A stretch of DNA of 64,000 nt from contig JAZLBW010000045.1 in the NCBI GenBank assembly GCA_045613905.1, forward strand, positions 9,647 to 73,646. Direction: 5' to 3'. The notes beneath the pieces are model-generated. The model was not told the origin of the DNA, made no database searches, and saw nothing but the letters and a program-made list of their open reading frames with translations. This document shows positions 27,204 to 52,480 of the stretch, one piece after another. The DNA is from Candidatus Caccoplasma sp. (GTDB taxonomy: Bacteria; Bacteroidota; Bacteroidia; Bacteroidales; G3-4614). Position numbers and translations under genes: made by a program. Position 1 is the stretch's first letter. Every line of letters begins with the position of its first letter.

Positions 27204-28409
27204 ATGAAAGTAAAGTTATTGACATTTATAATATTGATGATGTGTTGCATCACCTCAAAAGGCGAAACATTAAACGAGAGTAATTACTTCAATCGTTTGG
27301 CTGACGACGGAAAAAACATATGGGTGGCAACAAGCAAAGGAGTTATAAGATACGACAAAACAGAGAAGATGGCATACAATGCGAATGAACTTCTTGGAAT
27401 TGACGAAAACTCCATTGTCAAGTGCATTAAGGCAGACAAAAGCGGCAGAATATGGTATTCGGTTGATGGAGAGGGAGTATATTTTTTTGATGGAGAAAAG
27501 AGCGAGGCCCATTTCGATTACTACAAGGAGGACCTTTTGAGATTGGCTTTTGCCTTTGATGCAAACGATTCGACATGGGTATCGGCAGGCGGATACTATA
27601 TATCCCCCATGATTGAAGGTACTCGAAAAGGATACACAACTCCCGACAACTACTCAAGCACTCAAAAAGCCTATATCATGGATATGGAGTTTGACAACAA
27701 AGGCAATTTATGGATTTCGATGTTTGGAGAGTTCAATTCTCTGCTATGCCACAAAAGAGATAAAAGCTACTGCGAAAGCATCATTGCCGAAGGGAACACT
27801 GTATTACCCTCATTAACAATCGATGAACATGACAATATTTGGTACACCATAGAGAGAGGATTGATCTATTACGACACAGCCACAGGGATAAAAACAACAT
27901 ATTGGAACGATACGGACAGTAATATCCCCGCTGCCCACTTTTTTGCAAGCGACATAGACAGCGAGGGCAATGTATGGTTTACATCGTCACACTACTTGTT
28001 ACGATACGATGGTTCGCATTTTAAATGGTGGAACAGCTACGGATACCACGATACACGAGCAATCCTTTGCGACGAAAATGCCGTGTGGATATTGATGTCA
28101 AATGACGTTTTGTTCCGCTTCGAGAACGATAAGTTTGACAAGATTGATTTAGCCCCCGAAGTAGCAGGTATTGAGGAAAGTATAAACGATGTTGAAAATA
28201 TTAAAGCATATGTTTCGAACGGAGTTTTATATATCGAAAATTCGGAAGAGATAACAAATATTTCGATTTACGACATGATGGGTAAAGTTATAACTTCAAC
28301 TAATGCCAATGGCGCAACTTCTACTCAAATTACATTACCCCCAGGCACTAAAGGTTTGCATATAGTAAAAGTAAACAATGAGGTTATAAAGGTTGTATCC
28401 AACAACTGA
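27204..28409 (+). CDS. T9SS-secreted beta-propeller repeat protein (two-component-regulator-propeller-like blades), copy A
   Basis: Signal peptide. Six or seven repeats of the G-N/R-(I/V)W...G(L/V).xYD type (KNIWVATSKGVIRYD, GRIWYSVDGEGVYFFDG, DNIWYTIERGLIYYD, GNVWFTSSHYLLRYDG). C-terminal sorting domain KAYVSNGVLYIEN...NANGATSTQITLP...VKVNNEVIKV. Confidence 0.65.
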   Translation: MKVKLLTFIILMMCCITSKGETLNESNYFNRLADDGKNIWVATSKGVIRYDKTEKMAYNANELLGIDENSIVKCIKADKSGRIWYSVDGEGVYFFDGEKSEAHFDYYKEDLLRLAFAFDANDSTWVSAGGYYISPMIEGTRKGYTTPDNYSSTQKAYIMDMEFDNKGNLWISMFGEFNSLLCHKRDKSYCESIIAEGNTVLPSLTIDEHDNIWYTIERGLIYYDTATGIKTTYWNDTDSNIPAAHFFASDIDSEGNVWFTSSHYLLRYDGSHFKWWNSYGYHDTRAILCDENAVWILMSNDVLFRFENDKFDKIDLAPEVAGIEESINDVENIKAYVSNGVLYIENSEEITNISIYDMMGKVITSTNANGATSTQITLPPGTKGLHIVKVNNEVIKVVSNN

Positions 28410-28468
28410 TATTCCATTTTTGAGGTTGTCTAAAAATTCCCTATATCGAACTTCCGTTAATAATAGTT

Positions 28469-28482
28469 AAAAAAAGGGGGGG
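28469..28482. repeat. Homopolymer pair A7G7 in the intergenic region
   Basis: aaaaaaaggggggg read directly, 87 nt upstream of the ATG at 28569. A G7 tract is unusual in this AT-rich spacer. Confidence 0.9.
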
Positions 28483-28514
28483 TAAAGATTCTCTTGCTTC
28501 TTCATTGTAAAATG

Positions 28515-28531
28515 TTACTTTCGCAAAGTAA
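28515..28531. promoter_or_regulatory. Perfect 7-3-7 palindrome TTACTTT-CGC-AAAGTAA (operator-like)
   Basis: Read directly; 38 nt upstream of the LamG-like gene start. Confidence 0.35.
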
Positions 28532-28568
28532 ATTACAATATTCTTAATTTTTTAAAGGGGAGGTATAT

Positions 28569-29654
28569 ATGAAAAATATTTACTCGTCAAAAAAAATACT
28601 TTTGGTAATATTTTCACTGCTATTATCTATATCAATAATAAGAGCAAATAACGAACAACCACAAGGAATAGACCTTGGAGAGTATGCTTTTGGAATACCT
28701 GTTGAGCAACTTAATTTTACTAATCAATCACCCTTTACTCTTTCGTTCTGGGTAAAAGTAAAAGAGTTTGACCATTCAGAGTATGGCACTCTGTTTGTGA
28801 GTATTCGCAACCCGAAGGATCCTTATGTCATGAGTGATTATGGTTGGATGTGGGCATTTGTAGAACCCAATGATTCTAAAAATATTCTTAATATGGCTGT
28901 TAGGTCATCTGGTTCATCGGGATTTGATGCAGAAGAGTTATCTTCATTCGATTTTATAAAAGAAGAGTGGCTTAACTTCTCTTTTGTATTTGATTATGAT
29001 GAAAAAAGAATGCTTACGCTATATTTGAATGGAACTCCTGTATATGAGGTAAAAGGAACGTATGAAACATACTCATGGACACAACAAAACATTATTATGA
29101 TAGGAGGTATATCATCGTTACGTTCTCCATTAAATGCATATATTGATGAGGTTCAATTATATAAAAAAGCTTTATCGCAAGCACAGATTATTAAGATTAT
29201 GACCTCACCTTTGATAAGAGATTCATCACTACTTGGATATTGGGATTTTAAAGATGATTGCTCTGTTGATGCAGATGGTTTTATGAAAGCTGATAAAGGC
29301 TCAGCAAAGGCCACTATGTATAAAATTTTAACGAGTGGTATAGTTTCTACAGGCACTGAAGTTCAACCATTCACCTTTGGAGAGGGAGTAGATCCCGAAT
29401 CTGTCATACAGGGAGTTGAGGAGAGTGTCACAAATGAGTCAAAAGCTAAAGCATTTATCTCAAACGAAATATTGAGAATTGAAAATGCAGAGGGCATAGA
29501 TTCAGTGGTAGTTTATGACGCAATGGGAAGAGTTATAACTTCAACTAACGCAAACGGCGCAACTTCAACCCAAATTACCCTTCCTTCAAATACCAAAGGA
29601 GTGATAATTTTGAAAGTAAACAACGAGGTTATAAAGGTTGCTTGCAACAACTAA
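28569..29654 (+). CDS. T9SS-secreted LamG/concanavalin-A-like lectin-fold protein, copy A
   Basis: Signal peptide. FTLSFWVK...LYLNG...IGG...AYIDEVQLYKKALSQAQI is the classic LamG/laminin-G 'LamG-3' pattern. C-terminal sorting domain KAFISNEILRIEN...NANGATSTQITLP...LKVNNEVIKV. Confidence 0.6.
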   Translation: MKNIYSSKKILLVIFSLLLSISIIRANNEQPQGIDLGEYAFGIPVEQLNFTNQSPFTLSFWVKVKEFDHSEYGTLFVSIRNPKDPYVMSDYGWMWAFVEPNDSKNILNMAVRSSGSSGFDAEELSSFDFIKEEWLNFSFVFDYDEKRMLTLYLNGTPVYEVKGTYETYSWTQQNIIMIGGISSLRSPLNAYIDEVQLYKKALSQAQIIKIMTSPLIRDSSLLGYWDFKDDCSVDADGFMKADKGSAKATMYKILTSGIVSTGTEVQPFTFGEGVDPESVIQGVEESVTNESKAKAFISNEILRIENAEGIDSVVVYDAMGRVITSTNANGATSTQITLPSNTKGVIILKVNNEVIKVACNN

Positions 29655-29678
29655 TCGTAGATGACAATTTTTTATAAA

Positions 29679-29708
29679 GGCGGAAAGTTGACACTTTTCG
29701 CCTTTTTT
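29679..29708 (+). terminator. Rho-independent terminator
   Basis: ggcggaaag / cttttcgcc stem (one G-U pair) followed by T6. Confidence 0.65.
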
Positions 29709-29739
29709 ATTAAAAAATCGACAAACTTTATTCAATTAT

Positions 29740-29773
29740 TTTGAAGAAAAAACGCAATTATTTTCTATTTTTG
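29740..29773 (+). promoter_or_regulatory. Candidate promoter (-33 TTTG / -7 TATTTTTG) for the ftsX operon
   Basis: TTTG at 29740..29743 and TATTTTTG at 29766..29773 with 22-nt spacing; 57 nt upstream of the ATG at 29830. Confidence 0.4.
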
Positions 29774-29829
29774 CAAAAGATTTGGGTAAGTATGCCCTAT
29801 TGCATAATATATTACTATAACAGTCAAAA

Positions 29830-30711
29830 ATGGGACAAGAAAACAACAAGCAACATATCTCGTTCTTAAACGCCAGAGTAACATCAATTATCAGTATCTC
29901 TCTCGTGCTGTTTTTATTGGGAATTGTTGTATCACTATCGATATTAGGAACTCAACTTACAAAACATATCAAAGAGAACATGGGCTTTACCATAGTCATA
30001 AAAGATTCTGCTTCGAAACGCGGTATTGAATCGGTAAAGAAAGAGTTGGATAAAGCGCCATATGTTAAAGCCGTTCAGTTTATATCAAAAGAGGATGCTC
30101 TTAAAGAGTTGGAGCTTGAACTCGGAGAGAGTCCAAAAGACCTATTGGGCTTTAACCCTCTGCAATCGTCAATAGAGATTAAACTTTTGGCAGAATATGC
30201 TTCGACCGATTCTCTTGCCTGGATTGAGGCTAAAATAAAAGAACACAGAGAGGTTGTTTCGGAGGTTATTTGTCAAAAAGATGTTATACAGGTTATTAAC
30301 GACAACCTTCGCAAGGCAGAGATAGTATTGTTATCAATATCGGTAATTCTAATGATTATCTCATTTGCCCTCATTAGCAATACCATTCGATTAATGGCTT
30401 ATTCAAGACGTTTTCTTATTCACACAATGAAGCTTGTGGGAGCTACCCCCGGCTTTATCAGACGTCCATTTATTGTTCGTAATGTTGTTGAGGGAATTGT
30501 TGCCGCCATAATTGCAATTGCTCTCCTTTCGGGTTGTGCATACTACTTGGTTAGCGAGTTTGAAAATCTTGCGATTTTGATAAATTTCTTCACCCTTATT
30601 CAAATTTTTGGTATGGTTCTGATTTTAGGTGTGATTCTTACATCCATATCTGCATTCTTTGCCATTAACCGATATATCTCTATGGATAGGGACGACCTTT
30701 ATTATATGTAA
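29830..30711 (+). CDS. ftsX: FtsX-like cell division permease
   Basis: 293 aa with one N-terminal TM, a periplasmic domain, then three C-terminal TMs with the MKLVGAT block typical of FtsX. Confidence 0.8.
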   Translation: MGQENNKQHISFLNARVTSIISISLVLFLLGIVVSLSILGTQLTKHIKENMGFTIVIKDSASKRGIESVKKELDKAPYVKAVQFISKEDALKELELELGESPKDLLGFNPLQSSIEIKLLAEYASTDSLAWIEAKIKEHREVVSEVICQKDVIQVINDNLRKAEIVLLSISVILMIISFALISNTIRLMAYSRRFLIHTMKLVGATPGFIRRPFIVRNVVEGIVAAIIAIALLSGCAYYLVSEFENLAILINFFTLIQIFGMVLILGVILTSISAFFAINRYISMDRDDLYYM

Positions 30712-30729
30712 AAACAAATTTAAAACAAT

Positions 30730-30987
30730 ATGATAAATAAAAACAGTGAAAATAACGATGTAAACACATTTGCTTTGGGAAAGATAAACTACATTCTTAT
30801 TGCCATTGCATTTGGTCTTGTTATCATAGGATTCGCCCTTATGGCGGGCGGAAGTTCTACCCCCGACAGCTACGACCCTGATATTTTCAGTTGGAGACGT
30901 ATAGTTTTTGGTCCCACAATCTCTTTTATTGGTTTTGTGGCTATTGTATTTGCAATCATGTATAAAGGAAAAAAGGAGGTTAAATAA
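30730..30987 (+). CDS. Small two-TM membrane protein (DUF3098-like, commonly follows ftsX in Bacteroidota)
   Basis: 85 aa with two hydrophobic helices. Its stop overlaps the uppP start (TAATG). Confidence 0.55.
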
Positions 30988-31832
30988 TGGAATGGTTAGA
31001 GGCTTTAATTTTAGGACTACTACAAGGATTTACAGAGTATCTGCCTATAAGCAGTAGCGGACACTTGACTATTGCGTCAAATTTTGTTGGAATCACAGAC
31101 CCTGAAGAGATTCTTCCCTTTACGGTTTTGCTTCACGTTGCAACCGTATTGAGCACAATAGTTATATTATACAAAGAGATTATATGGATTTTTAAGGGGT
31201 TGTTTCAATGCCCTTGCAATTCAACCTGCGAGACTACTAAATGTTGTGGATTAAAACTCAACACTCAACAACAATATACCCTTGCCATTATAATATCAAT
31301 GATTCCTGTTGGTATTGTAGGTATATTCTTTAAAGATATGGTTGAAGCGGCTTTTGAGGGCTTGACTATTGTTGGATGCTGCTTGTTGGCAACCGCTGCT
31401 CTTTTGGCATTTTCGTACTACGCAAAACCTCGCCAAAAAGATAAAATCTCATTGAAAGATGCATTTATCATTGGTTTGGGGCAAGCCGCTGCCGTTCTGC
31501 CGGGGTTATCTCGCTCAGGCACAACTATTGCAACAGGTCTTTTATTAGGAAACAAAAAGGAGAACATGGCTCAATTCTCATTCCTAATGGTTATCCCTCC
31601 AATTTTAGGCGAGGCTCTTTTAGAGAGCATTGACATGGTGAAAGAGGGCGTTGCCGCTGCTTTTGGTGGCATAAATGCCACTGCCCTTATAGTAGGCTTT
31701 TTGGCAGCATTCATATCGGGTTGCATTGCTTGCAAATGGATGATTTCCATTGTAAGAAAAGGTAAACTTATATACTTTGCATACTACTGTCTTGCAGCAG
31801 GAGCATTTACTTTGATTTATTCATTTATTTAA
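30987..31832 (+). CDS. uppP: Undecaprenyl-diphosphate phosphatase
   Basis: 281 aa with [17 protein letters not shown] and [10 protein letters not shown], the two conserved UppP/BacA motifs. Confidence 0.9.
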
Positions 31833-31844
31833 TATACCCATAAA

Positions 31845-32582
31845 GTGGCACAAGAGATTGATAGAGATTTTGACTTTATAGGCGGGGAGGTTCTTCATTT
31901 TAACAAACCTCTTCATTGGACTTCGTTCAAGCTTGTAAAGAAACTAAGAGGACATATACACCAACATTACGGAATTAAGAAATTCAAAGTGGGACATGCC
32001 GGCACTCTCGACCCTCTTGCCACAGGAGTGATGACTATTTGCACAGGCAAAGCCACCAAACTTATCGAAAGTTTGCAAGGCGAGGACAAAGAGTATATTA
32101 CAACTATTGCCTTGGGTGCAACCACCCCATCTTTTGACTTGGAGACGGAGGTTGATCAAACATTCCCAACCGAGCATATCACTCGAGAGAGAGTTGAAGA
32201 GGTATTGGCATCGTTTGTTGGAGATATTGAGCAAGTTCCCCCAATATTCTCGGCTGTTAAAATTGATGGAGAGAGAGCATACAAACTTGCGCGAAAGGGT
32301 GATGAGGTTGAACTTAAAGCTAAGCTCATAAGGATTGACGAAATTGAGCTTTTGGAGTTCTCTCAAACTGCCATAAGAATAAGAGTGGCTTGCGGAAAAG
32401 GTACATATATACGCTCTCTCGCAAGAGATATTGGCATGGCTTTGGATAGCGGAGGACACCTTACAGAATTGATAAGAACCCGTGTTGGAAAGGTGAAATT
32501 GGAAGATTGCTTCTCGGTTGAACAGATAGCCGATATTGTTTCAAAAGGAATAGCTCCAAAGGACAACAACATTAAGAAATAA
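31845..32582 (+). CDS. truB: tRNA pseudouridine(55) synthase
   Basis: GTG start. KVGHAGTLDPLATGV is the catalytic Asp motif, and GKGTYIRSLARD is also present. Confidence 0.9.
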   Translation: MAQEIDRDFDFIGGEVLHFNKPLHWTSFKLVKKLRGHIHQHYGIKKFKVGHAGTLDPLATGVMTICTGKATKLIESLQGEDKEYITTIALGATTPSFDLETEVDQTFPTEHITRERVEEVLASFVGDIEQVPPIFSAVKIDGERAYKLARKGDEVELKAKLIRIDEIELLEFSQTAIRIRVACGKGTYIRSLARDIGMALDSGGHLTELIRTRVGKVKLEDCFSVEQIADIVSKGIAPKDNNIKK

Positions 32583-32600
32583 TTATTAAACGATATAGAC

Positions 32601-33653: not shown

Positions 33654-33691
33654 AAATCAACAAATTTAGAAGCAGTATAGATTCTTAAAAT

Positions 33692-34177
33692 ATGAGTGTA
33701 GTTTATCTGTCGTTAGGCTCAAACATGGGCAATAGAGAGGGTGTATTGGCTCTCTCAATAGAGGAGATAGGTAAACGCATTGGCACAGTTACAAAAGTTT
33801 CAAGTAAATACGAAACCGAGCCTTGGGGTTTTATCTCTACCAATAAGTTTATAAACATGGCAATAGAGGTTGATACCAAGCTATCGCCCCGAGAGGTGTC
33901 GGAACGAGTCCACAAGATTGAGGATGATTTAGGAAGAACCCGAAGTAACAACGCCACAGGTTATGAGGACAGAGTTATAGACATTGACATTCTGATGATT
34001 GACAATATAATCTCGGATGAGAGCGATTTGACTCTTCCTCATCCTAAAATGCATCTAAGGGAATTTGTTATATTTCCCTTGAGCGAAATTGCACCCAATA
34101 TTATTCATCCAATATTGGGGTGTTCAATTGAAGATATAAAAACAAACATGACAAACAATCCTTATGAAAGAGTTTAA
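33692..34177 (+). CDS. folK: 2-amino-4-hydroxy-6-hydroxymethyldihydropteridine diphosphokinase (HPPK)
   Basis: 161 aa with YLSLGSNMGNR, ETEPWG, RVIDIDIL and LPHPKMHLREFV. Confidence 0.85.
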   Translation: MSVVYLSLGSNMGNREGVLALSIEEIGKRIGTVTKVSSKYETEPWGFISTNKFINMAIEVDTKLSPREVSERVHKIEDDLGRTRSNNATGYEDRVIDIDILMIDNIISDESDLTLPHPKMHLREFVIFPLSEIAPNIIHPILGCSIEDIKTNMTNNPYERV

Positions 34178-34862
34178 ACCATATCAAAGACTTCTCCTAT
34201 TTATTAAAAAACATGCTCCCGAAAAATTTTGGAAGAGTTTAGGCAGAGCAAGAACCAATGGCTTTGTAGGACTTATTCTGTTCTTTGCGATATTCGGGTT
34301 GGTTCGTATCATGTGGTGGGGCGGAAGTGACAACTTTGCCATATACACCGGTTGGGACGGAGTTTATGACCCCGAACCAATAATGGAGTTTGTTGATTTC
34401 TCGGAATATAACCAATGGATATCTCTTCGCACCGCCGACGGAGTTGAGTTTTTCAACAAATATGTCTTTATGCAAAATATTGACAGAAACAATGAGTCTG
34501 TTGTAATTCGTAGCGACGAAGGTAAATATTTAGGGGGTGTGAGAATATTCCCCACATGCGCAGGCAACAGGGAGATGATGATTATTTTGTTGCTTATGCT
34601 CCTTATTCCAGGTCCTACAAAACCAAAACTTTGGTATATTCCTTCGGCTCTGATACTCTTTTACATTATAAACTGTTTCAGGCTGGCATTGGTGAACATC
34701 TCAACCATGGCAGAAAACAAAGAGGTGTTTACGGCGGCACACGACTATTCGGGAATGGCAATGAGTGTATTCGTATTCTTTATCTGGCTTTTCTGGGAAA
34801 GAAAATATGCTGAGAAATATCGTCTTGAGAGTTGGAAAAAGGTAGATAAACTTGAACAATAG
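34164..34862 (+). CDS. Small exosortase/archaeosortase-like membrane protein (tentative)
   Basis: 232 aa with about 4 TM helices. Three blocks occur in the order and membrane context expected for exosortase-family transpeptidases: Cys-x-Gly at the start of a helix (PTCAGNRE), N-x-x-R in the next helix (INCFRLAL), then AAHDYSG. Overlaps folK by 14 nt. Confidence 0.45.
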   Translation: MKEFKPYQRLLLFIKKHAPEKFWKSLGRARTNGFVGLILFFAIFGLVRIMWWGGSDNFAIYTGWDGVYDPEPIMEFVDFSEYNQWISLRTADGVEFFNKYVFMQNIDRNNESVVIRSDEGKYLGGVRIFPTCAGNREMMIILLLMLLIPGPTKPKLWYIPSALILFYIINCFRLALVNISTMAENKEVFTAAHDYSGMAMSVFVFFIWLFWERKYAEKYRLESWKKVDKLEQ

Positions 34863-38619: not shown

Positions 38620-38647
38620 GGGAAATTATCTCATAACATGGAAAAAG

Positions 38648-38893
38648 GTCGAATATACTCCCGCTCGCTGTAAAATATTCAAGTAAACTTGATATTTTGC
38701 TCGCTTATTATCTGATATTTGACGCAAGCGTCGAATATACTCCCGCTCGCTGTAAAATATTCAAGTAAACTTGATATTTTGCTCGCTTATTTTTTGTTAT
38801 TTGACGTAAACGTCGAATATACTCCCGCTCGCTGTAAAATATTCAAGTAAACTTGATATTTTGCTCGCTTATTCGTATATTTGCAATAAATAG
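38648..38893. repeat. 82-bp tandem repeat, 3 units: an identical 62-nt core plus a variable 20-nt linker
   Basis: The cores at 38648..38709, 38730..38791 and 38812..38873 are 62/62 identical: gtcgaatatactcccgctcgctgtaaaatattcaagtaaacttgatattttgctcgcttatt. The first two linkers differ at 5/20 positions and the third is degenerate. Each core contains the hairpin AAAATATTCAAG-TAAA-CTTGATATTTT. Each linker/core junction forms TTTGACG-N4-CGTCGAA. Confidence 0.95.
38876..38883 (+). promoter_or_regulatory. Candidate -7 box TATATTTG at the end of the repeat array
   Basis: Matches TAnnTTTG, 79 nt upstream of the ATG at 38962. The nearest upstream TTTG is only 12 nt away, so the -33 element is unclear. 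Confidence 0.3.
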
Positions 38894-38961: not shown

Positions 38962-41949
38962 ATGAACACAGAGGAAGAGAAAAATAAAGGTCAGAGCCTC
39001 AGCGCCTTTTATATGAAAGACACGTCATTTGCAAACCTCATGCAAAAACGCGTGTTTAACGTTTTGCTTATAGCAAGCCGATACGATGCTTTTATTCTGG
39101 AAGAGGATGGTCGTATTGAAGAGCATATATTTTTGGAGTATATGTCGCTGAACTTGAGTTCGCCTCCACGCGTAACCGAAGCTTACACCTTTGAGCAAGC
39201 TGAAAAAGAGTTGCAAGAGAAGAGCTACGACCTTATAATTGTCATGCCCGCCATGCAGGATGCCGATGTATTCAACAACATAAACCGCATAAAAGCAAAA
39301 TACAAGAGTATTCCTCTTGTCTTGCTTACTCCTTTCTCTCACGAAGTATCGCGTAGATTGGCTAAAGAGGATTTAAGTGCAGTTGACTACACTTTCAGTT
39401 GGTTAGGTAATGCCGACCTTTTGCTTGCAATCGTTAAATTGATGGAGGACAACATGAACCTTGAAGAGGACGTTGCATCTGTGGGTGTACAGGTTATTAT
39501 TGTTGTGGAAGATTCTATTCGCTTCTACTCTTCTATGTTGCCCATTCTCTATAAGGTTGTTCTTAAACAATCACAAATATTCTCGACCGAGGCTCTTAAC
39601 CGACACGAACAGATGTTGCGTATGCGCGGCCGTCCAAAAATTGTTTTGGCTCGTACATACGAAGAGGCTGTTGAGATGTATGACAAATACCGCAGCAATG
39701 TGTTGGGTGTGGTTACCGATGTTTCGTTTACCCGTAAGGGTAAAAAAGATAGTAAAGCAGGTTTGAAATTCTGCGAATATCTTCGAAAGGATAATGAGGA
39801 TTTGCCAATCATCATTGACTCATCGGATATTGAGAATAGTGCGGAAGCTTCGAAATATAATGCCGCATTTTTGTTCAAAAATTCAAAGACTCTGCCTATC
39901 GACTTGAAGTATGCCGTTTTACGCAACTTCGGATATGGCGATTTTGAGTTTATAAATCCTTCTACCGGAGAGGTTATTGCCACGGTTAAAGACCTCAAAG
40001 AGTTGCAAGATATAATTTTTGAGATTCCCAACGAGTCGGTTTTGTTTCACGCAAGTCGCAACCATATTTCAAGTTGGCTCTACTCGCGTGCAATGTTCCC
40101 CCTTGCCGAACTTTTAAGACAAAAGCCTGTTCGCTCATGTGATAATGGCGACGAAATTAAGAATATTATTTTCGAGGCTATCGTAGAGTACCGAAAGATG
40201 AAAAACAGCGGTGTTGTTGCAATTTTTGAACGCACTCGCTTTGATAAATATTCAAATTTTGCCCGAATAGGACAAGGTTCGTTGGGTGGTAAAGGTAGAG
40301 GTTTGGCATTTGTTGACGCCATCATAAAACGGCACCCCGAACTTGCCAATTGCAACGGAGTTAAAGTTGCCGTACCTAAAACTGTTGTTTTGAGTACCGA
40401 TATCTTTGATGAGTTTATGGAGGAGAATGTTCTCTACTCTGTGGCAATGAGCGATATTCCTGACGAGGAGATTCTAAACAACTTCCTCAGGGCTAAACTT
40501 CCCGAACGTCTCGACAACGACTTTTTGGCTCTGTTTGACGTTATAAAAGGACCTATAGCCATTCGCTCGTCAAGTTTGTTGGAGGACTCGCACTATCAAC
40601 CTTTTGCAGGTATATATTCTACATATATGATTCCATACATTGAGGATAAGATGATTATGCTTAACCTCTTGAAGGATGCGATAAAAGGAGTGTACGCTTC
40701 GGTTTACTACTCCGACAGTAAAGCCTATATGGAAGCAACATCAAACATTATTGACCAAGAGAAGATGGCCATTATATTGCAAGAGGTTGTTGGCAATATG
40801 TACGACAAGCGTTTCTACCCCTCGTTCTCGGGAGTTGGACGTTCGTTGAACTACTATCCCATAAACAACGAAAAACCCGAAGACGGAGTATGTGATATTG
40901 CCGTTGGATTGGGTAAATATATTGTTGACGGAGGAAGAAGTTTGCGTTTCTCGCCCAAACATCCAAACTCTATATTGCAGACAAGCACAATGGAGATGGC
41001 ATTAAGCGACACTCAAACTCGCTTCTATGCTCTCGACATGGAGAATGTAAGCCAAAATTTCTCAATAGACGACAGTTTCAATATAAAGAAGCTCTCTATT
41101 GCCGACGCAGATGAGGATAAGTCGCTATATGGCATGGTCTCTACTTTTGATCACATTGACCAAGTAATACGTGACGGTTATTATGAAGAGGGTCGCAAAG
41201 TTGTCACCTTTGCCAATATACTTAAGCATGAAATGTTCCCTCTTGCCAAAATTTTAGACATGATGCTGAATTATGGCAAAGATGAGATGGGACGCCCTGT
41301 CGAGATTGAGTTTGCGGGTAACCTTAAGGGTGGCAAAAACAATATGGGTGAGGTTTATTGGCTACAGATACGTCCGATTGTGGATATGAAAGAGATGCGC
41401 GAGGATGAGATTGAAAATGTCCGAGATGAAGATATTTTGATTAAGAGTTCGTCGGCATTAGGTCATGGCATACACGAAGGAGTTAAGGATGTTGTTTACG
41501 TTAAAGACGGGGTCTTCGGATATTTTGCCAACTCCTTTATTGCTCGCGAAATTGAAAAGATTAATAAACAATATTTGGCAGAGAAAAAGAACTATGTTCT
41601 TATTGGCCCCGGACGTTGGGGTTCGAGCGACACAGCACTCGGTATTCCCATAAAATGGCCACACATATCTGCCGCCAAAGTTATAGTTGAGACTGCCATC
41701 AAAGATTTTTGGATTGAACCGAGTCAAGGTACTCACTTCTTCCAAAACCTTACTTCGTTCGGAGTCGGGTACTTTACCATCGACCCAACAAGTTGCAGCA
41801 GTTCGTATGATAAGGAGTTCCTCGATAACCTCCCTGCAAAACACGAAAGCCAATACATAAGAGTTGTTGAGCTTCCAAGTCAGATGGTTATTAAAATAAA
41901 CGGTAAAAAGAATGTGGGAATTGTAATTAAGCCACAAACAGAAGAGTAA
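38962..41949 (+). CDS. Receiver-domain (REC-like x2) protein fused to a PEP/pyruvate-binding (PPDK N-terminal, ATP-grasp) domain
   Basis: 995 aa. The N-terminal ~330 aa has two CheY-like alpha/beta units (VLLIASRYD...LIIVMP...; VIIVVEDS...VVTDVS...PIIIDSS). The central region has GGKGRGLAF and IRSSSLLEDSHYQPFAGIYSTY, the PPDK_N signature. I did not see a GGxTSHAAI-type phosphohistidine swivel motif. Confidence 0.7.
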   Translation: MNTEEEKNKGQSLSAFYMKDTSFANLMQKRVFNVLLIASRYDAFILEEDGRIEEHIFLEYMSLNLSSPPRVTEAYTFEQAEKELQEKSYDLIIVMPAMQDADVFNNINRIKAKYKSIPLVLLTPFSHEVSRRLAKEDLSAVDYTFSWLGNADLLLAIVKLMEDNMNLEEDVASVGVQVIIVVEDSIRFYSSMLPILYKVVLKQSQIFSTEALNRHEQMLRMRGRPKIVLARTYEEAVEMYDKYRSNVLGVVTDVSFTRKGKKDSKAGLKFCEYLRKDNEDLPIIIDSSDIENSAEASKYNAAFLFKNSKTLPIDLKYAVLRNFGYGDFEFINPSTGEVIATVKDLKELQDIIFEIPNESVLFHASRNHISSWLYSRAMFPLAELLRQKPVRSCDNGDEIKNIIFEAIVEYRKMKNSGVVAIFERTRFDKYSNFARIGQGSLGGKGRGLAFVDAIIKRHPELANCNGVKVAVPKTVVLSTDIFDEFMEENVLYSVAMSDIPDEEILNNFLRAKLPERLDNDFLALFDVIKGPIAIRSSSLLEDSHYQPFAGIYSTYMIPYIEDKMIMLNLLKDAIKGVYASVYYSDSKAYMEATSNIIDQEKMAIILQEVVGNMYDKRFYPSFSGVGRSLNYYPINNEKPEDGVCDIAVGLGKYIVDGGRSLRFSPKHPNSILQTSTMEMALSDTQTRFYALDMENVSQNFSIDDSFNIKKLSIADADEDKSLYGMVSTFDHIDQVIRDGYYEEGRKVVTFANILKHEMFPLAKILDMMLNYGKDEMGRPVEIEFAGNLKGGKNNMGEVYWLQIRPIVDMKEMREDEIENVRDEDILIKSSSALGHGIHEGVKDVVYVKDGVFGYFANSFIAREIEKINKQYLAEKKNYVLIGPGRWGSSDTALGIPIKWPHISAAKVIVETAIKDFWIEPSQGTHFFQNLTSFGVGYFTIDPTSCSSSYDKEFLDNLPAKHESQYIRVVELPSQMVIKINGKKNVGIVIKPQTEE

Positions 41950-45116: not shown

Positions 45117-45142
45117 AGAGTGAGAAGCAAGCCTCTCACTCT
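45117..45142. terminator. Hairpin downstream of purC
   Basis: agagtgaga / tctcactct form a 9-bp stem with an 8-nt loop. Confidence 0.45.
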
Positions 45143-45157
45143 CTTTTCTTTATTTTA

Positions 45158-46108: not shown

Positions 46109-46127
46109 TGTTTTTTATATGTTTTTA

Positions 46128-47138
46128 TCAATTATCTTTCTCTTTTTTTACACGCTTATCTCTTTGCTTTTTATCATAAGCCTCGTACGCCTCAACAATT
46201 GCTTGAACCAAACGGTGACGAACTATATCGCTCTTGTCGAAACGTACCAACCCTATGCCCTTTATATCTCTCAGAATGTCTATAGCCTGAACCAAACCCG
46301 ATGTTTGACTTTGAGGTAGGTCAATCTGACTCATATCTCCTGTAATTATCATCTTTGCATTACTTCCCAGGCGGGTTAAAAACATCTTTATTTGGGGCAC
46401 TGTGGTGTTTTGAGCCTCATCCAATATAACAACCGCATCATTCAAGGTTCTTCCACGCATAAATGCCAAAGGGGCAATCTGAATTGTGTTGTTCTCCATC
46501 ATCTCGCGAAGCTTAACGGCCGGAATCATATCCTGCAAAGCGTCATAAAGTGGTTGAAGATAGGGGTCGATTTTCTCCTTCATATCTCCTGGTAAGAATC
46601 CGAGCTTCTCGCCTGCTTCAACAGCCGGACGACTCAATATAATCTTTCTTACCTCTTTGTTCTTCAATGCTCTTACGGCAAGAGCAATTGCAACATATGT
46701 TTTACCCGTACCTGCAGGGCCAAGTGCAAAGACCAAATCATTCTTTTCAAAGCTCTTTACAAGCTTTTGTTGGTTTTCTGTTCGTCCAACAATCTGCTTT
46801 CCATTAATGCCATGTATTATAAGATGCTCTTGTTTTATTTCAAGAGGAGTGCCTCCATTAACTATAGCACCAATGATTGTTCCATCAAGGCGATTATACT
46901 CCGAACAATACTTTATTATCAAAGATATACTCTTTTCAAACTGCATAATATCCTTCTCCTCTCCTATTACCTTCATAACGTTGCCTCTGGCTATGATATG
47001 AAGTTTAGGATAGAGTGTCTTTATAAAGTGCAGATTATCGTTGTTTGTCCCATAGAACACTACGAGATCAACATCTTCGATTATTATATTTTTCTCTATC
47101 ATTATACAATATTGATATTGTCCGATTTTGCAAAACAA
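46128..47138 (-). CDS. phoH: PhoH family ATPase
   Basis: Walker A motif GPAGTGKTY, VILDEAQN and ITGDMSQIDLP. The more likely start is the internal ATG at 47102 (MIEKNIII...). Confidence 0.9.
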   Translation of the reverse strand: MFCKIGQYQYCIMIEKNIIIEDVDLVVFYGTNNDNLHFIKTLYPKLHIIARGNVMKVIGEEKDIMQFEKSISLIIKYCSEYNRLDGTIIGAIVNGGTPLEIKQEHLIIHGINGKQIVGRTENQQKLVKSFEKNDLVFALGPAGTGKTYVAIALAVRALKNKEVRKIILSRPAVEAGEKLGFLPGDMKEKIDPYLQPLYDALQDMIPAVKLREMMENNTIQIAPLAFMRGRTLNDAVVILDEAQNTTVPQIKMFLTRLGSNAKMIITGDMSQIDLPQSQTSGLVQAIDILRDIKGIGLVRFDKSDIVRHRLVQAIVEAYEAYDKKQRDKRVKKEKDN

Positions 47139-47178
47139 AGATAGATACTTTTATATAAAATCTCAATTTTTTGAAGAT

Positions 47179-47206
47179 AAAAAAAAGAGATTATTTCTAA
47201 TCTCTT
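47179..47206 (-). terminator. Rho-independent terminator of the M23 peptidase gene
   Basis: aagagatta / taatctctt form a 9-bp stem with a 4-nt loop, followed on the minus strand by T8. Confidence 0.8.
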
Positions 47207-47234
47207 CTCCTTTGACTCTATTTTTATAAATAAC

Positions 47235-48122
47235 CTATCTAACTCTTAAAACGCTACCCACTTTTAAGACCTTGTTCGATTTTATTCCATTCAAACGACA
47301 CAATTGGGTAACAGATGTTCTATACTTTTTAGCAATGGAAGATAGAGTCTCTCCCGATTTAATACGGTGGGTTGCATAGCTGTTAACCGCACTTTTTTGT
47401 TGTTTCTTTTTATAGAACATATAGGTGTCGGTGTGTGCTACCTGATTTTTAAAGTCGAATATCTCGGCAGGGTTTATGGTCATACCCATGATTTTGGTTT
47501 CGAAGTGTAGGTGAGGACCTGTTGAACGACCTGTATTTCCTCCCAAAGCAATAACATCTCCTGCCTTTACAACTTGGTTAGGTTTAACAAGAATCTTTGA
47601 TAGGTGTCCGTACACAGTTTCAAAACCGTTTGTGTGGCGTATCTTCACATAATAACCATATCCTTTTGCCTGATATGCGGTTGCGCTGATTTTTCCTGTA
47701 AAAGCTGCACGAACTGTATCTCCTGTACGCAACTTAAGGTCAATACCTTTGTGCATACGTCCCCAACGCCATCCGTATGCCGACGTTACATGTCCCGGAA
47801 CAGGAATGCAGTGATCTTTTACATCAATTGCCAAAGTATCTTTTGTGTTTTTGGTAGAGAAAGTCTCAAGCCATTGCTCATCCCATCCGTCTGCCAACAT
47901 TGCATCCAAATCATCCTCCTCCATTACATATTGATTCAATATCAAAGTTGAATCAACAACGTTCATTATTTTGGGAAGGATTTTGTTATAGGCAATCATG
48001 TTTTGTTGTGTCATAGCATGGTATTGTTGTGCATTAATGCGGGTAGGTTGAGCATACGCCAAACCCGATTGCATCACTGCAAACAAAAGAATAAGTACTG
48101 CTATTTTCACACTTTTTATCAT
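47235..48122 (-). CDS. M23 family metallopeptidase with a C-terminal LysM domain
   Basis: Signal peptide, HKGIDL and GNTGRSTGPHLHFE zinc motifs, and a LysM block HRIKSGETLSSIAKKY...LNGI. Confidence 0.85.
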   Translation of the reverse strand: MIKSVKIAVLILLFAVMQSGLAYAQPTRINAQQYHAMTQQNMIAYNKILPKIMNVVDSTLILNQYVMEEDDLDAMLADGWDEQWLETFSTKNTKDTLAIDVKDHCIPVPGHVTSAYGWRWGRMHKGIDLKLRTGDTVRAAFTGKISATAYQAKGYGYYVKIRHTNGFETVYGHLSKILVKPNQVVKAGDVIALGGNTGRSTGPHLHFETKIMGMTINPAEIFDFKNQVAHTDTYMFYKKKQQKSAVNSYATHRIKSGETLSSIAKKYRTSVTQLCRLNGIKSNKVLKVGSVLRVR

Positions 48123-48314
48123 GTTTTCCTCAATGTTTTTTTGCGATTTGCAGGGAGATAATTTCCCAAAGTCGCGCCAAAGATAAGTATTTTCTTTTGA
48201 TTATTAGCAAGTTGCAATCATAAAATTTGTTTATCAAGAACAGAAACCGCAACTATCGTAGTTGTATATCGTTGATAATCTGAATGTTATAACAAAACAT
48301 GTTTTTAAACATAT

Positions 48315-48350
48315 AAAAAGCAAAGGAGGCCATATGAATGAACCTCCTTT
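48315..48350 (-). terminator. Rho-independent terminator of proS
   Basis: aaaggagg / cctccttt stem, followed on the minus strand by TTTTT. Confidence 0.6.
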
Positions 48351-48382
48351 AACTGAATTATATAACAAATAGATTTACTCTA

Positions 48383-49858
48383 TTAGTATGAGCGAGCAAA
48401 CAATACTCTGCGTGCCGATGGTTTTCCTGTTACCATACATACACCCGGAGTAGCATCCATATCCTCAGGGATACAACGGATGGTAGCTTTTGTCTCCTCC
48501 TTAATCAACTCCTCTGTCTCTGCTGTTCCATCCCAGTGAGCATATATAAATCCACCTTTTTCAATCTCCTCTTTGAACTCTTCGTATGTATTAACCTCAC
48601 GGATATTCTCGTCACGGAATTTGCGAGCTTTCTCGAAGATGTTGTTTTGAATGTCTGCAAGTAGTTGCTCAACGTACTCTACAATTCCATCGCAAGTGCG
48701 AGTCTCTTTTTCAAGAGTATCACGACGCATAACCTCAATTGTGTTGTTTTCAAGGTCTCTTCCACCCATTACCAAACGAACAGGTACACCTTTCAACTCA
48801 TAGTCTGCAAATTTAAATCCGGGACGTTTGTTGTCAGAGTTATCATATTTAACCGAAATTCCTTTTGCTTTAAGAGCAGAAACAATTCCTGCAACTTTCT
48901 CATCGATTTGAGCAAGTTGCTCTGCTCCGCGATAGATAGGAACAATTACAACTTGAATTGGTGCCAATGCAGGAGGAAGTACAAGACCATTGTCGTCAGA
49001 GTGAGACATAATCAAAGCTCCCATCAAACGAGTAGATACACCCCAAGATGTTGCCCAAACATAAGACAATGAGTTGTCTTTATCCAAGAATTGAACATCA
49101 AATGCTTTAGCAAAGTTTTGTCCAAGGAAGTGAGATGTTCCAGATTGCAAAGCTTTACCGTCTTGCATCAAAGCCTCGATAGTATAAGTGTTTACTGCAC
49201 CTGCAAACTTCTCGCTCTCCGATTTAACACCTTTGATAACAGGCATAGCCATATATTTTTCGGCAAATGTAGAATATACATTCAACATTCTTACTGCTTC
49301 TTCCTCTGCCTCCTCTTTAGTTGCGTGAGCAGTGTGTCCCTCTTGCCACAAAAACTCTGCAGTACGAAGGAACAAACGAGTACGCATCTCCCAACGCATT
49401 ACGTTAGCCCATTGGTTGCAAAGAATTGGAAGGTCGCGATAAGATTGTATCCAGTTTTTATATGTATTCCAAATGATTGTCTCTGATGTGGGGCGAATAA
49501 TCAACTCCTCCTCCAATCTTGCGGCAGGGTCAACAGTTACACCGCCAAACTCTGAGTTTTTCAAGCGATAGTGAGTTACAACGGCACACTCTTTAGCAAA
49601 TCCCTCAACATGTTCAGCCTCTTTGCTCAAGAAAGATTTTGGAATCAACAATGGGAAATAAGCATTAACGTGTCCTGTCTCTTTGAACATATCGTCCAAT
49701 TGACGTTGCATTTTTTCCCAAATTGCATATCCGTAAGGTTTGATAACCATACAACCACGCACTGCAGATTGCTCTGCCAAGTCGGCTTTAACAACAAGTT
49801 CGTTGTACCATTGCGAATAGTTCTCGCCTCTTTTTGTTAGATTTTTTAATTCTGCCAT
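48383..49858 (-). CDS. proS: Proline--tRNA ligase (archaeal/eukaryotic-type class II)
   Basis: 491 aa with class II motifs (FRDE-like [25 protein letters not shown]) and a C-terminal zinc-domain-like tail ending ARSY. Confidence 0.95.
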
Positions 49859-49937
49859 AGTTATATTGTCTATTGTATTATTTCTTATTGAATTACAAGC
49901 TACAAAATTACAATAATCTGTTTATATTACAAACAAG

Positions 49938-49972
49938 TGAGCGGAAAGATATTTTTTATATCTCTCCGCTCA
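49938..49972 (-). terminator. Hairpin downstream of LamG-like copy B
   Basis: tgagcggaaagatat / atatctctccgctca form a 15-bp stem with one mismatch. Confidence 0.5.
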
Positions 49973-50017
49973 TATTGATTTTTAGTAATTAGTTATAACC
50001 TGAAGGTTTTAAAGTTA

Positions 50018-51103
50018 CTAAATCATTACTTTCATAACTTCATTGTTTACCTTAACAATCAACATACCTTTAATGGTTGAAGGTAATGCAATTTGAGTGG
50101 AAGTTGCACCATTGGCATTAGCTGAAGACATTACTTTACCTGTTGCATCGTAAACTACTACTGAGGTTATTCCTTCTGCTCTTTCAATATTAAGCACTCC
50201 GTTCGAAACAAATGCTTTGGTATTGCTCTCCGAAACAACGTTCTCTTCAATGCCCTGTATAACAGATTCGGGATCTACTCCTTCGCCAAAGGTAAAAGGT
50301 TTTATCTCAACTCCATTTGAATATCCTGCTTCTGTTTGATTAATCATATACATTGTTGCTTTTATCTCTCCATTATCTGCAGGCATAAACCCATCTGTGT
50401 CTGTAATAGCCTCATTTTCAAAATTCCAAAACCCTAAAAGTGATTCATCGTTTGACAACGGCTCGGTCATAGTTGCATAAACCTCTGCTTGTGATAATGC
50501 TTTGTTATAAAACTGAACTTTATCTACGTATGCGTTTAAAGACGAACGATTTTTTGCTGCACCGCCAAGCATAATTATATTATTTTTAGTCCACGAATAT
50601 GTAACATTATAACATTGCACTTTATATGTTGGTGAGCCATTTATATAAACCAAAAGAGTTCTATTAGTATCATAACCAAAAACGAATGAGAAATGGAGCC
50701 ACTCTTCAGTATTAAACTTAAACGGGTTTAATTCTGTATCCAAAAACACATCTCCTGCATTACTTGTAAGTATTCCAATTTCCAACCCATCAAAATCTCC
50801 ACCGAACGAGTCTCCTACAAGAGAATACATCCAGCCCCAATCGCTCATAGGCGCCCCTTGCGCAACATCTCTTATATTTACAAATTGTGTTCCGTTTTCG
50901 GAATGATTAAACTCTTTTACTTTAGTCCAGAAAGATAAAGTAAATTTTGAATATGTGTCAAAATTTAACTGCTCCGCAGGTATCCCAAAGGCGTATTCCC
51001 CTAAATATATTCCTCGAGATTCAACCTCATTGGCAGTTGCTAATGATATTGAGAATATCAGAGATATTATTACTGATAATAATTTTTGTGATCTCATAAT
51101 CAT
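50018..51103 (-). CDS. T9SS-secreted LamG/concanavalin-A-like protein, copy B (paralogue of 28569..29654)
   Basis: 361 aa, collinear with copy A: LGEYAFGIPAEQLNF, FTLSFWTKVKEF, LNAYVDKVQFYNKALSQAEV, PFTFGEGVDPESVIQG. It carries the same type of C-terminal sorting domain. Confidence 0.6.
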   Translation of the reverse strand: MIMRSQKLLSVIISLIFSISLATANEVESRGIYLGEYAFGIPAEQLNFDTYSKFTLSFWTKVKEFNHSENGTQFVNIRDVAQGAPMSDWGWMYSLVGDSFGGDFDGLEIGILTSNAGDVFLDTELNPFKFNTEEWLHFSFVFGYDTNRTLLVYINGSPTYKVQCYNVTYSWTKNNIIMLGGAAKNRSSLNAYVDKVQFYNKALSQAEVYATMTEPLSNDESLLGFWNFENEAITDTDGFMPADNGEIKATMYMINQTEAGYSNGVEIKPFTFGEGVDPESVIQGIEENVVSESNTKAFVSNGVLNIERAEGITSVVVYDATGKVMSSANANGATSTQIALPSTIKGMLIVKVNNEVMKVMI

Positions 51104-51113
51104 ATATTTAAAT

Positions 51114-51260
51114 TTATTTAATAATTACTTTTTGAGCGTTAATATTACCATCTATTACTACTACTATAATATACGCACCAGAAGTAAGAAAATATTGACA
51201 TACAATTTCCCCTGCTTGATGTATTGATTCTGGTTGCAATAATGTTTGTTGAGATGTTTG
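51114..51260 (-). pseudogene. Orphan 3' fragment of a T9SS C-terminal sorting domain, with no start codon
   Basis: My manual minus-strand translation between two stops gives QTSQQTLLQPESIHQAGEIVCQYFLTSGAYIIVVVIDGNINAQKVIIK*. The tail SGAYIIVVVIDGNINAQKVIIK parallels the protease sorting-domain end SGTYIVNVVLSNGTAKSLKFIVR at 20160. It contains no Met and begins 2 nt after the stop of the upstream gene, in a different frame. Confidence 0.45.
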
Positions 51261-51265
51261 TCACA

Positions 51266-52480
51266 TTAATTAATAGCAACCTTCGCAACCTCATTATTTA
51301 CTTTAACCATTATCACTCCTTTAATGGTTGTGGGTAATGGAATTTGGACATTAGTTGCTCCCCTCTCTACGGGAGAGGGGTTGGGGGTAAGGTTCCTTCC
51401 CATTGCATCATAAACAGCAACAGAGTTTATGCCTTCTGCATTCTCTATATACAGCACTCCATTTGAAACGTATGCTTTGGTGTTGCTCTCCTCTGCGATA
51501 CACTCTTCAACACCCGCCACAACAGGGGATAAATCGATTGTTTCAAATTCATTATTCTGGAACTTCAACAGAGTGTCGTTCTTTAACAGTACCCAAACAA
51601 TATCTCCATCGCAAAGTATTGAACGAGCCTCGTGATAACCATAACAGTTCCACCACTTAAAGTTCTCTCCATCAAAACACAAAAGATAGTGTGAGGATGT
51701 AAACCATATATTCCCTTGATTATCTACATCATTTGCATAAAATTGCGTAGCAGGAATATCAGGGTTGGTAGCATTGGTCATAACACTATCCTTGCCTGTT
51801 TCTTGATTATAGCAATGTATTCCGTATTCATCGGAGAACCATATATTGTCATTGTTATCTATTGAGAGAGAGCAAACTTGACGTTTCCCACTCAATTTCG
51901 TAATTGATGTATTGCCCCCAGATTTATGACAAAGAATATGACTGTCATTTCCCTTCGCTGCTATCCATAAATTATTTTTACTATCAAATGCCATATCTGT
52001 AATTATCCCATAATTGGGTACTACATATCCGTCAGGTATTAAATATATATTTAATCCTATTCCTTCGGAGGTAAATTTTGAGTAGTAACATACAGATGAA
52101 AGCCACAAATTAGAATTATCCTCAAAAACTATGGCATATACTTGGTATGGAAACGACGGGATTGTTGCTGATAATTTGGTGGTTGATACCCCATTATAAC
52201 TATATACTCCATTTTGACTATCTGCATAATAGATATTCCCTTCAGGGGAGGCTCCAATTGAGAAAATTGTCGATTCGCTATCAGATACAAGTTCTTCAGA
52301 AGCATCTGAAACAACTCCCGTTAATTTATCAAGTTTAACAATTCCTTTACTTGTTGCTGCAAATAATATATTACCTTTGATTGCTAACCGATTAGAATGA
52401 TACTCCATACAAAACTCTGAGGCACTAATATTGAAGATATAGAATAAACATATCATCAATAACATAATAATCTTTTTCAT
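51266..52480 (-). CDS. T9SS-secreted beta-propeller repeat protein, copy B (paralogue of 27204..28409)
   Basis: 404 aa, collinear with copy A: GNIWFTSSHYLLCFDGENFKWWNCYGYHEARSILCD versus GNVWFTSSHYLLRYDGSHFKWWNSYGYHDTRAILCD. It carries the same sorting-domain type, interrupted by a GC-rich element. Confidence 0.65.
   Translation of the reverse strand: MKKIIMLLMICLFYIFNISASEFCMEYHSNRLAIKGNILFAATSKGIVKLDKLTGVVSDASEELVSDSESTIFSIGASPEGNIYYADSQNGVYSYNGVSTTKLSATIPSFPYQVYAIVFEDNSNLWLSSVCYYSKFTSEGIGLNIYLIPDGYVVPNYGIITDMAFDSKNNLWIAAKGNDSHILCHKSGGNTSITKLSGKRQVCSLSIDNNDNIWFSDEYGIHCYNQETGKDSVMTNATNPDIPATQFYANDVDNQGNIWFTSSHYLLCFDGENFKWWNCYGYHEARSILCDGDIVWVLLKNDTLLKFQNNEFETIDLSPVVAGVEECIAEESNTKAYVSNGVLYIENAEGINSVAVYDAMGRNLTPNPSPVERGATNVQIPLPTTIKGVIMVKVNNEVAKVAIN
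51359..51394. repeat. GC-rich palindromic mini-element embedded in frame in the sorting-domain coding sequence
   Basis: tcccctctctacgggagaggggttgggggtaaggtt. CCCCTCTC / GAGAGGGG form an 8-bp stem, followed by TTGGGGGTAAGG. It has 22/36 G+C inside an AT-rich gene. It replaces 27 nt that are conserved in the other three sorting domains. Confidence 0.85.

Follow-up and report, generated by a model that had tools for sequence, protein, structure and literature searches.

Two propeller and LamG-like gene pairs of a Candidatus Caccoplasma contig as probable members of a set of variable islands of predicted type IX secretion cargo

In this study, we analyzed a stretch of 64,000 nucleotides from Candidatus Caccoplasma sp. 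(assembly GCA_045613905.1, contig JAZLBW010000045.1), in the following called the window, with regard to two pairs of genes for small proteins predicted to be cargo of a type IX secretion system (T9SS). Each pair consists of a gene for a beta-propeller protein followed by a gene for a LamG-like protein, and each protein ends in a predicted T9SS-type C-terminal domain (CTD). PropA and LamGA form cassette A and lie in island A between metK and ftsX; PropB and LamGB form cassette B and lie, in opposite orientation, in island B between proS and a cluster of genes for glycoside hydrolases (GH) and a transporter of the major facilitator superfamily (GH92/GH130/MFS/two GH20/GH2). The coordinates are collected in Table 1. 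An earlier note on this DNA had described the cassettes as an old inverted duplication of a dedicated two-gene unit. The four open reading frames (ORFs) have exactly the positions and lengths given there, and every peptide quoted was found in the translations. Also, the collinearity of both pairs from end to end is borne out by full-length protein alignments, in which PropA and PropB share 43% identity over 405 columns (E = 9e-106) and LamGA and LamGB 58% over 358 columns (E = 1e-143). Since the inverted DNA arms are strongly diverged (72-87% identity), the cassettes are old paralogues and not an assembly artefact, as had been claimed.

Table 1. Positions of cargo genes, their parts and neighboring features. 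Positions refer to the window except for the two fusion genes, which are given by locus.
Feature	Position	Strand	Description
PropA	27204..28409	+	401 aa; signal peptide, Reg_prop propeller, linker, T9SS type A CTD
PropA CTD	aa ~333-401, nt 28200-28406	+	'NANGATSTQI' type
Spacer A	28410..28568	+	159 nt; without terminator-like site; GGAGG-type start region at its end
LamGA	28569..29654	+	361 aa; signal peptide, LamG/ConA-like jelly roll, linker, CTD
LamGA CTD	aa ~293-361, nt 29445-29651	+	'NANGATSTQI' type
Terminator-like hairpin closing island A	29676..29705	+	13-pair stem followed by a T-run
HP2	49938..49972	-	terminator-like (GCGGAGAGATA..TCTTTCCGC), after LamGB; flanked 3' by the conserved region upstream of proS
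LamGB	50018..51103	-	361 aa; LamGA-like architecture including the CTD
LamGB CTD	nt ~50021-50221	-	'NANGATSTQI' type
Spacer B	51104..51265	-	162 nt; contains the DUF7689 3' remnant
DUF7689 3' remnant	51260-51126	-	last ~45 codons and stop codon
PropB	51266..52480	-	404 aa; propeller and 'TPNPSPVERG'-type CTD
PropB CTD	nt ~51269-51478	-	'TPNPSPVERG' type
HP1	52581..52614	-	terminator-like, after GH92; direct copy of HP2
Glycan catabolic cluster	52635-64000		GH92, GH130, MFS transporter, two GH20, divergent GH2 cut by the window end
1068-aa ORF	20160-23366	-	weak domain matches
SAM-II (long-loop) riboswitch	26908-26966	-	metK leader
Exosortase-family (EpsH-like) membrane protein	34164-34862	+	between folK and aroK
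82-nt tandem repeat	38644-38873		2.8 copies, 95% identity
995-aa ORF	38962-41949	+	receiver domain and PPDK_N
Fusion in L026	9005-11029		674 aa, single ORF; signal peptide-propeller-LamG-CTD
Fusion in L029	9886-11565		559 aa, single ORF; signal peptide-LamG-U332-CTD

The distance between propeller and LamG gene is nearly the same in both cassettes, which the earlier note had taken as a preserved feature; this holds for the sizes but not for homology. Spacer B contains the 3' end of a DUF7689 gene. Its minus-strand translation ends in ..QPESIHQAGEIVCQYFLTSGAYIIVVVIDGNINAQKVIIK followed by the stop codon, while the C-terminus of the intact DUF7689 protein (822 aa) of a relative is ..LPDSTHQAGEEIYQYSLASGTYIIAVIVDGNINAQKVIVK, and tblastn aligned spacer B to this protein end with 62% identity over 45 aa (E = 6.5e-11). 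Also at the DNA level, spacer B is collinear with intact DUF7689 3' ends; this extends to the stop codon and to the few nucleotides that precede the LamG start. In addition, blastn gave matches at 18 non-redundant loci consisting of intact DUF7689 3' ends and other relics. In spacer A, no DUF7689 remnant was found; its sole similarity is the GGAGG-type start region, which is common to the starts of PropB and of DUF7689/propeller genes. Spacer B being a DUF7689 3' end, cassette B is therefore a propeller-DUF7689-LamG cluster from which ~2.3 kb, the body of the middle gene, were lost. Intact clusters of this composition are present in the loci L004 and L019. These precedents are more distant, and a close PropB orthologue with an intact DUF7689 gene downstream was not obtained: PropB is a rare paralogue, and its single close relative found, P0115 (84% identity), adjoins ftsX without LamG. 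As judged from the spacer sequences, the common spacing of ~160 nt is a coincidence, and the practical lesson is that similar spacing in two paralogous clusters need not mean homology.

The islands occupy fixed intergenic slots between core genes, namely metK/ftsX, GH92/proS, aroK/POR and GH2/GH20. The sister genome RGIG7362 is collinear with the window from ~62.4 kb down to ~22 kb, with core genes of 92-95% DNA identity. At the metK/ftsX slot, which holds PropA-LamGA in the window, RGIG7362 (L010) carries the array propeller (90%)-LamG-DUF7689-LamG (82% to LamGA)-LamG, in L051 a PropB-like gene (84%) immediately precedes ftsX, and upstream of ftsX in L001 the order is propeller-U332-DUF7689-LamG, where U332 denotes a 332-aa module. 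The GH92/proS slot holds PropB-remnant-LamGB in the window, a single LamG gene in the sister genome (RGIG7362, L013), and no cargo gene in L007, where GH92 adjoins proS. The two other slots are empty in the window. At GH2/GH20, L007 has DUF7689-LamG with a LamG protein 85% identical to LamGA, and aroK/POR is occupied by LamG in L009 and by U332 in L001. Thus, the decayed DUF7689 gene in cassette B and the differing content of both slots in the sister genome speak against the duplication of a dedicated two-gene unit.

With a probability of roughly 0.65, the cassettes belong to a set of several hypervariable cargo islands carried by an uncultured Bacteroidales lineage of ruminant and bird guts, all supplied from one pool of four families. 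This pool consists of the Reg_prop propeller, LamG, the 332-aa module and DUF7689; in each, a signal peptide is predicted to precede a single module, which a linker joins to a T9SS-type CTD. The content of the islands changes as genes are deleted, duplicated, fused, moved from slot to slot or provided with another CTD. Cassette A may represent a contracted propeller ... DUF7689-LamG array, and cassette B is the propeller-DUF7689-LamG cluster with its middle gene decayed.

PropA orthologues in relatives show 54-92% identity, LamGA is 82-85% identical to P0003/P0002, and LamGB is 98.9% identical to P0013 and 79% to P0008. LamGA has ~70 full-length homologues, all from Bacteroidales metagenome-assembled genomes (MAGs) or metagenomes. 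In GTDB, seven species genomes gave matches (Muribaculaceae bacterium RGIG7362; Bacteroidales SIG122, RGIG1667, RGIG7307 and RGIG9119; two Candidatus Caccoplasma species), five of them with three to five full-length LamG genes, one with three divergent copies and one with a divergent LamG-like gene only. When 1.84 billion cluster representatives were searched exhaustively by HMMER with the LamG module, just 17 were obtained at E <= 1e-30. In the relatives, LamG genes accompany three CTD-bearing families, i.e. the propeller, U332 (without Pfam match) and DUF7689 (~820 aa). Neither DUF7689 nor the 332-aa module gave an informative sequence match in Pfam, NCBIfam or the PDB, and no paper mentioning DUF7689 was found in the literature searched.

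The gene directly upstream of LamG is an intact DUF7689 gene at 6 loci, a DUF7689 3' remnant at at least 8, a propeller gene at 2 (cassette A of the window and L012) and U332 at 1; at 2 further loci, the propeller is fused to LamG. Such 3' remnants were observed ahead of many solitary LamG genes (L010 6128-6225 and 11118-11204; L009 9669-9744; L049 1076-1243; L018, L020 and L024). LamG copies seem to travel with the DUF7689 3' segment, which may carry LamG expression signals.

Propeller and LamG genes occur within one cluster in L001, L004, L010, L012 and L019, with genes of PropA type and LamGA type inherited together at slot A in L001, L010 and L012. They also exist as natural fusions in a single polypeptide (L026 and L028; 50%-identity clusters P0163, P0164 and P0167), and LamG is likewise fused to U332 (L029, L030 and P0166). 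The propeller-LamG fusions suggest that the two modules act together or side by side. On the other side, propeller genes without LamG within 10 kb were found in L031, L033, L039, L042, L043, L047 and L051. Of the proposed linkage of the two families in other genomes, the linkage itself thus stands through shared clusters and fusions, but not an obligatory pairing. Similarly, the proposal that the two secreted proteins work together is retained in the weaker form indicated by co-inheritance and fusions; as an obligate pair it fails, since LamG mostly follows DUF7689, intact or as a relic.

For the inverted layout, the earlier note had considered that the two copies could support recombinational inversion of the ftsX-to-proS segment (29.8-49.9 kb). 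The inverted arms extend up to 191 nt at 72-78% identity, and exact inverted matches do not exceed 20 nt. A Pfam scan of the ORFs of at least 150 aa, covering most of the window, detected no recombinase domain, and the orientation of the ftsX-proS segment is unchanged in every relative seen (RGIG7362 contig, L007/L009 genome, L001). From these sequence comparisons, inversion of the segment is unlikely, and the suggestion was dropped. Each island is co-oriented with its neighbors, and the coding strand changes at ~27 kb and ~44 kb; this would be enough to explain the inverted layout of the cassettes. A replication terminus or origin symmetry was rejected as a cause, since the GC skew merely tracks the coding strand with its switches at ~27 kb and ~44 kb. 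The model of the earlier note in its strictest form, in which a dedicated cassette of propeller scaffold and lectin was duplicated in inverted form, its products forming an obligate complex and the ftsX-proS segment being able to flip, is hard to reconcile with the DUF7689 remnant in one spacer only, the different slot contents of the sister genome, the many propellers without a LamG neighbor, the usual position of LamG behind DUF7689, the diverged arms, the lack of a recombinase domain among the window ORFs scanned against Pfam and the single orientation seen in relatives. Gene order and sizes alike in both copies, the second two-gene arrangement in L012, the fusions and the co-inheritance at slot A do speak for it, and on balance we hold it to be improbable.

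Direct copies of one terminator-like hairpin, HP1 and HP2, bound island B. Between propeller and LamG no terminator-like site was found in either pair, and a strong one follows each LamG gene; because of this, each pair is probably co-transcribed. A scan for sigma-70-type promoters, which does not cover Bacteroidota promoters, gave counts not above those of shuffled controls. The empty GH92/proS site of L007 (20451-20586; compared with 52481-52634 and 49859-50017 of the window) contains one hybrid hairpin with the left flank of HP1 and the right flank of HP2, which fits a single deletion between HP1 and HP2. This arrangement can also be read in another way, namely that the islands are hairpin-bounded mobile cassettes similar to integrons or repetitive extragenic palindrome (REP) elements, moving in and out at the conserved palindrome GCGGAGAG..CTTTCCGC. 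Beside the two direct copies and the hybrid in L007, the LamG gene at the aroK/POR slot of L009 is likewise flanked by hairpins, and 14 of 21 hairpin sites lie at most 250 nt from a cargo gene end, compared with 3.8% expected. However, most of these sites are the same GH92/proS slot in different genomes and hence non-independent observations, for which reason the hairpins were not taken as ends of mobile elements and were downgraded to terminators able to mediate deletion. They resemble ordinary strand-specific terminators, one deletion between HP1 and HP2 accounts for the empty site, island A has no such flanking pair, and neither an integrase nor a transposase was found beside the islands in the window or in those gene tables of other loci that were read. 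We regard mobility at the hairpins as very improbable.

All four proteins look like T9SS cargo, as had been proposed, on account of their signal peptides and CTDs. At the N-terminus of each, a hydrophobic segment precedes a cleavage-type motif of small residues, i.e. a predicted Sec signal peptide, and the AlphaFold2 (AF2) models show an N-terminal helix. Against TIGR04183 (cut-off 23), PropA scored 30.2, LamGB 23.1, LamGA 22.9 and PropB 10.3; against PF18962 (cut-off 27), the scores were 28.4 for PropA, 20.8 for LamGA and 21.8 for LamGB, so that PropA and LamGB reach the cut-off of TIGR04183. The four CTDs are 55-65% identical among themselves, and a beta-sandwich was modelled for those of PropA and LamGA. 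The architecture of Sec signal, functional domain and a C-terminal beta-sandwich of ~70 aa matching TIGR04183/PF18962 resembles that of T9SS type A cargo such as RgpB and HBP35 of P. gingivalis and RemA of F. johnsoniae, and in profile comparison the RemA CTD was matched weakly. In contrast to these proteins, the window proteins are very small and consist of a single module without catalytic domain, and their secretion is a predicted one, with the machinery outside the window; moreover, CTDs on unrelated modules are here 55-79% identical, indicating recent sharing or exchange. In the T9SS literature searched, no paper on these cargo families was found.

Two types of CTD were distinguished. The 'NANGATSTQI' type belongs to PropA, LamGA and LamGB; the second type is marked by the 'TPNPSPVERG' insertion, which is common to the CTDs of PropB, of the L001/L004 propellers and of U332, i.e. 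to unrelated modules in different genomes. With the LamG CTDs, that of PropA shares 63% and 61% identity, but with the CTD of its orthologue Prop_L001 just 47%, although the propeller domains of PropA and Prop_L001 are 57% identical and propeller and LamG domains are unrelated. This points to an exchange of CTDs between the cargo families. Going beyond the island reading, the four families could form a combinatorial system for surface diversification, with near-identical CTD-coding ends and DUF7689 3' ends serving as portable homology by which modules are duplicated, deleted, fused, provided with another CTD and moved between slots; we put this forward tentatively and consider it rather unlikely. 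Bacterial surface proteins encoded by variable multigene families within hypervariable islands are a known general kind. The islands resemble such families in the presence/absence and copy-number differences between sister genomes whose flanks are 92-95% identical, in cargo proteins that evolve faster than neighboring core genes, and in conserved ends as possible recombination substrates. They differ in that no mechanism of programmed switching, such as an invertase, silent cassettes or phase-variable repeats, was found here.

For the rate of evolution, the genes were compared with those of the sister genome. The ratio of non-synonymous to synonymous substitution rates (dN/dS) is 0.125 for PropA (90% identity) and 0.197 for LamGA (82% identity), compared with 0.00-0.08 and 97-100% amino-acid identity for most core genes; two short core genes are higher (DUF3098 0.13, HPPK 0.24). 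The cargo dN exceeds the dN of most core genes by a factor of roughly 3-30. By these substitution patterns, the cargo genes are functional, under purifying selection and fast-evolving. The GC content at third codon positions (GC3) is 0.27-0.31 in LamGA, LamGB and PropB (28569-29651, 50021-51103 and 51269-52480), 0.44 in PropA (27204-28406) and 0.34-0.44 in the core genes, a composition that fits a long residence of PropA at slot A and a greater mobility of the other three.

The propellers match Reg_prop (PF07494) with 38.2 and 32.8 bits (Pfam cut-off 20.4). In the AF2 model of PropA, with a predicted local distance difference test score (pLDDT) of 86.9, seven blades with 28 strands (aa ~30-315) are followed by a disordered linker and a C-terminal beta-sandwich. 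Its top Foldseek matches in the PDB are the sensor domains of the B. thetaiotaomicron hybrid two-component system (HTCS) proteins BT4673, BT4663 and BT3049 (E ~1e-12), and it also matches the T9SS component PorZ (PDB 5m11) with E = 2.6e-11. An identity as PorZ was rejected: the propellers match NF052228 partially, with 48.3 and 46.3 bits against an equivalog threshold of 260. A Reg_prop-type propeller followed by a CTD and the partial NCBIfam match are the points of likeness; PorZ has two propellers in ~760 aa and is a single-copy core component, whereas the window proteins have one in ~400 aa and are multi-copy and variable. With HTCS sensors, the window propellers share Reg_prop repeats, which bind glycans in HTCS proteins, but they lack the second propeller, the YYY domain and the transmembrane, kinase and regulator parts, and they are predicted to be secreted whereas HTCS sensors are membrane-bound. 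Consisting of one propeller and a CTD only, these proteins of ~400 aa were not accepted as hybrid two-component sensors.

The LamG proteins match Laminin_G_3 (PF13385) with 65.3 and 51.9 bits (cut-off 27.6). In the LamGA model (pLDDT 85.2), a linker joins a jelly roll (aa ~30-272) to the CTD, and its Foldseek matches comprise the LG domain of PAPP-A, pentraxins and the Hc-N of botulinum neurotoxin (BoNT), the lectin-like subdomain of clostridial neurotoxins. As far as the models suggest, the structural matches of both modules give no hint of catalysis. Outside the family, the LamG module is most closely related to the accessory domains of GH85-LamG-T9SS CTD proteins, which form seven clusters (P0169, P0173, P0190, P0204, P0210, P0272 and P0274) with 28-37% LamG identity over the whole module. 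There, LamG is of the same subtype and likewise followed by a T9SS CTD; the difference is that an enzyme is attached there, whereas LamG stands alone in the window. GH85 enzymes are endo-beta-N-acetylglucosaminidases that cut N-glycan cores. The cargo proteins are likely to be non-catalytic surface binders, and because of these GH85-linked relatives and of the GH92/GH130/GH20/GH2 genes beside island B, N-glycans or glycoproteins are their putative ligands. The propeller and LamG proteins would be exported via Sec and passed through the T9SS by recognition of their CTDs, followed by CTD cleavage and anchoring at the cell surface, where they would be co-displayed, sometimes as a pair. Their repertoire would be diversified by recombination among the shared CTD-coding ends and DUF7689 3' ends.

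The glycan catabolic cluster next to island B looks, by its gene content, like a set for N-glycan core degradation, and no TonB-dependent receptor or SusD domain was found in or beside either island or the cluster among the window ORFs scanned against Pfam. Island B, perhaps the whole family, could accordingly be an accessory of this cluster, whereby lectins anchored via the T9SS would supply GH85/GH92/GH20/GH130 with captured N-glycans or glycoproteins from host or diet and replace binders of the SusD or surface glycan-binding protein (SGBP) type. An island at GH92-proS is found in most relatives (L013, L015, L018, L025, L035, L036 and L046), and the recurrence of the LamG module in GH85-LamG-CTD enzymes, the Reg_prop nature of the HTCS glycan-sensing domains and the missing SusC/SusD gene would agree with such a role. 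It is weakened by the terminator-like hairpin between GH92 and PropB, by the empty GH92/proS slot in L007 and by the occurrence of the same families in slots beside ftsX, aroK and glycosyltransferases, and we rate its chance as low.

Several points weigh against the reading of the cassettes as variable islands of T9SS-exported surface binders. The CTDs of PropB and LamGA score under the curated cut-offs of the profile hidden Markov models. PorK/L/M/N, Sov/SprA, PorV and PorU were not found among the ORFs of the 64-kb window scanned against Pfam, and because no T9SS machinery gene lies in the window, secretion was inferred from the CTDs. The N-glycan idea derives from co-occurrence in other proteins at 28-37% identity and from the neighborhood, and island A and the other slots do not adjoin glycan genes. 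The direction of change, i.e. loss in the window or gain in a relative, is certain for cassette B only, where a remnant exists. Finally, most of the loci are MAG or metagenome contigs, so that some architectures may be incomplete.

Apart from the cargo genes, the segment between the cassettes contains ftsX, DUF3098, bacA, truB, queA, folK, an exosortase-like gene, aroK, a 2-oxoacid:ferredoxin oxidoreductase pair, a gene for a PPDK_N/receiver protein, flavin reductase, ubiE, purC, phoH, an M23 peptidase and proS. The position of the exosortase-family gene is kept in all relatives seen. The 995-aa protein is unusual in combining a receiver domain with PPDK_N (phosphoenolpyruvate-utilizing, ATP-binding) and is conserved in L009. 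Just upstream of its ORF lies the 82-nt tandem repeat, which has fewer copies in L009 (14041-14255) and may be a duplicated promoter region. The SAM-II riboswitch (64.1 bits, gathering cut-off 44) is situated within the divergent intergenic region that metK shares with PropA. In the 1068-aa ORF, weak fn3, trypsin-like and cadherin-like matches and no CTD were detected.

The islands would add uncharacterised T9SS cargo families in uncultured Bacteroidales of ruminant and bird guts, and their strain-level turnover between flanks of ~93% identity offers a tractable example of how a surface repertoire is diversified. If binding of N-glycans or host glycoproteins were true, they would constitute a SusD-independent, T9SS-displayed capture layer beside an N-glycan catabolic cluster. 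If the four families were a combinatorial system, strains would each carry a different set of T9SS-anchored lectin-like proteins, driven by pressure from phages, host antibodies or glycan niches.

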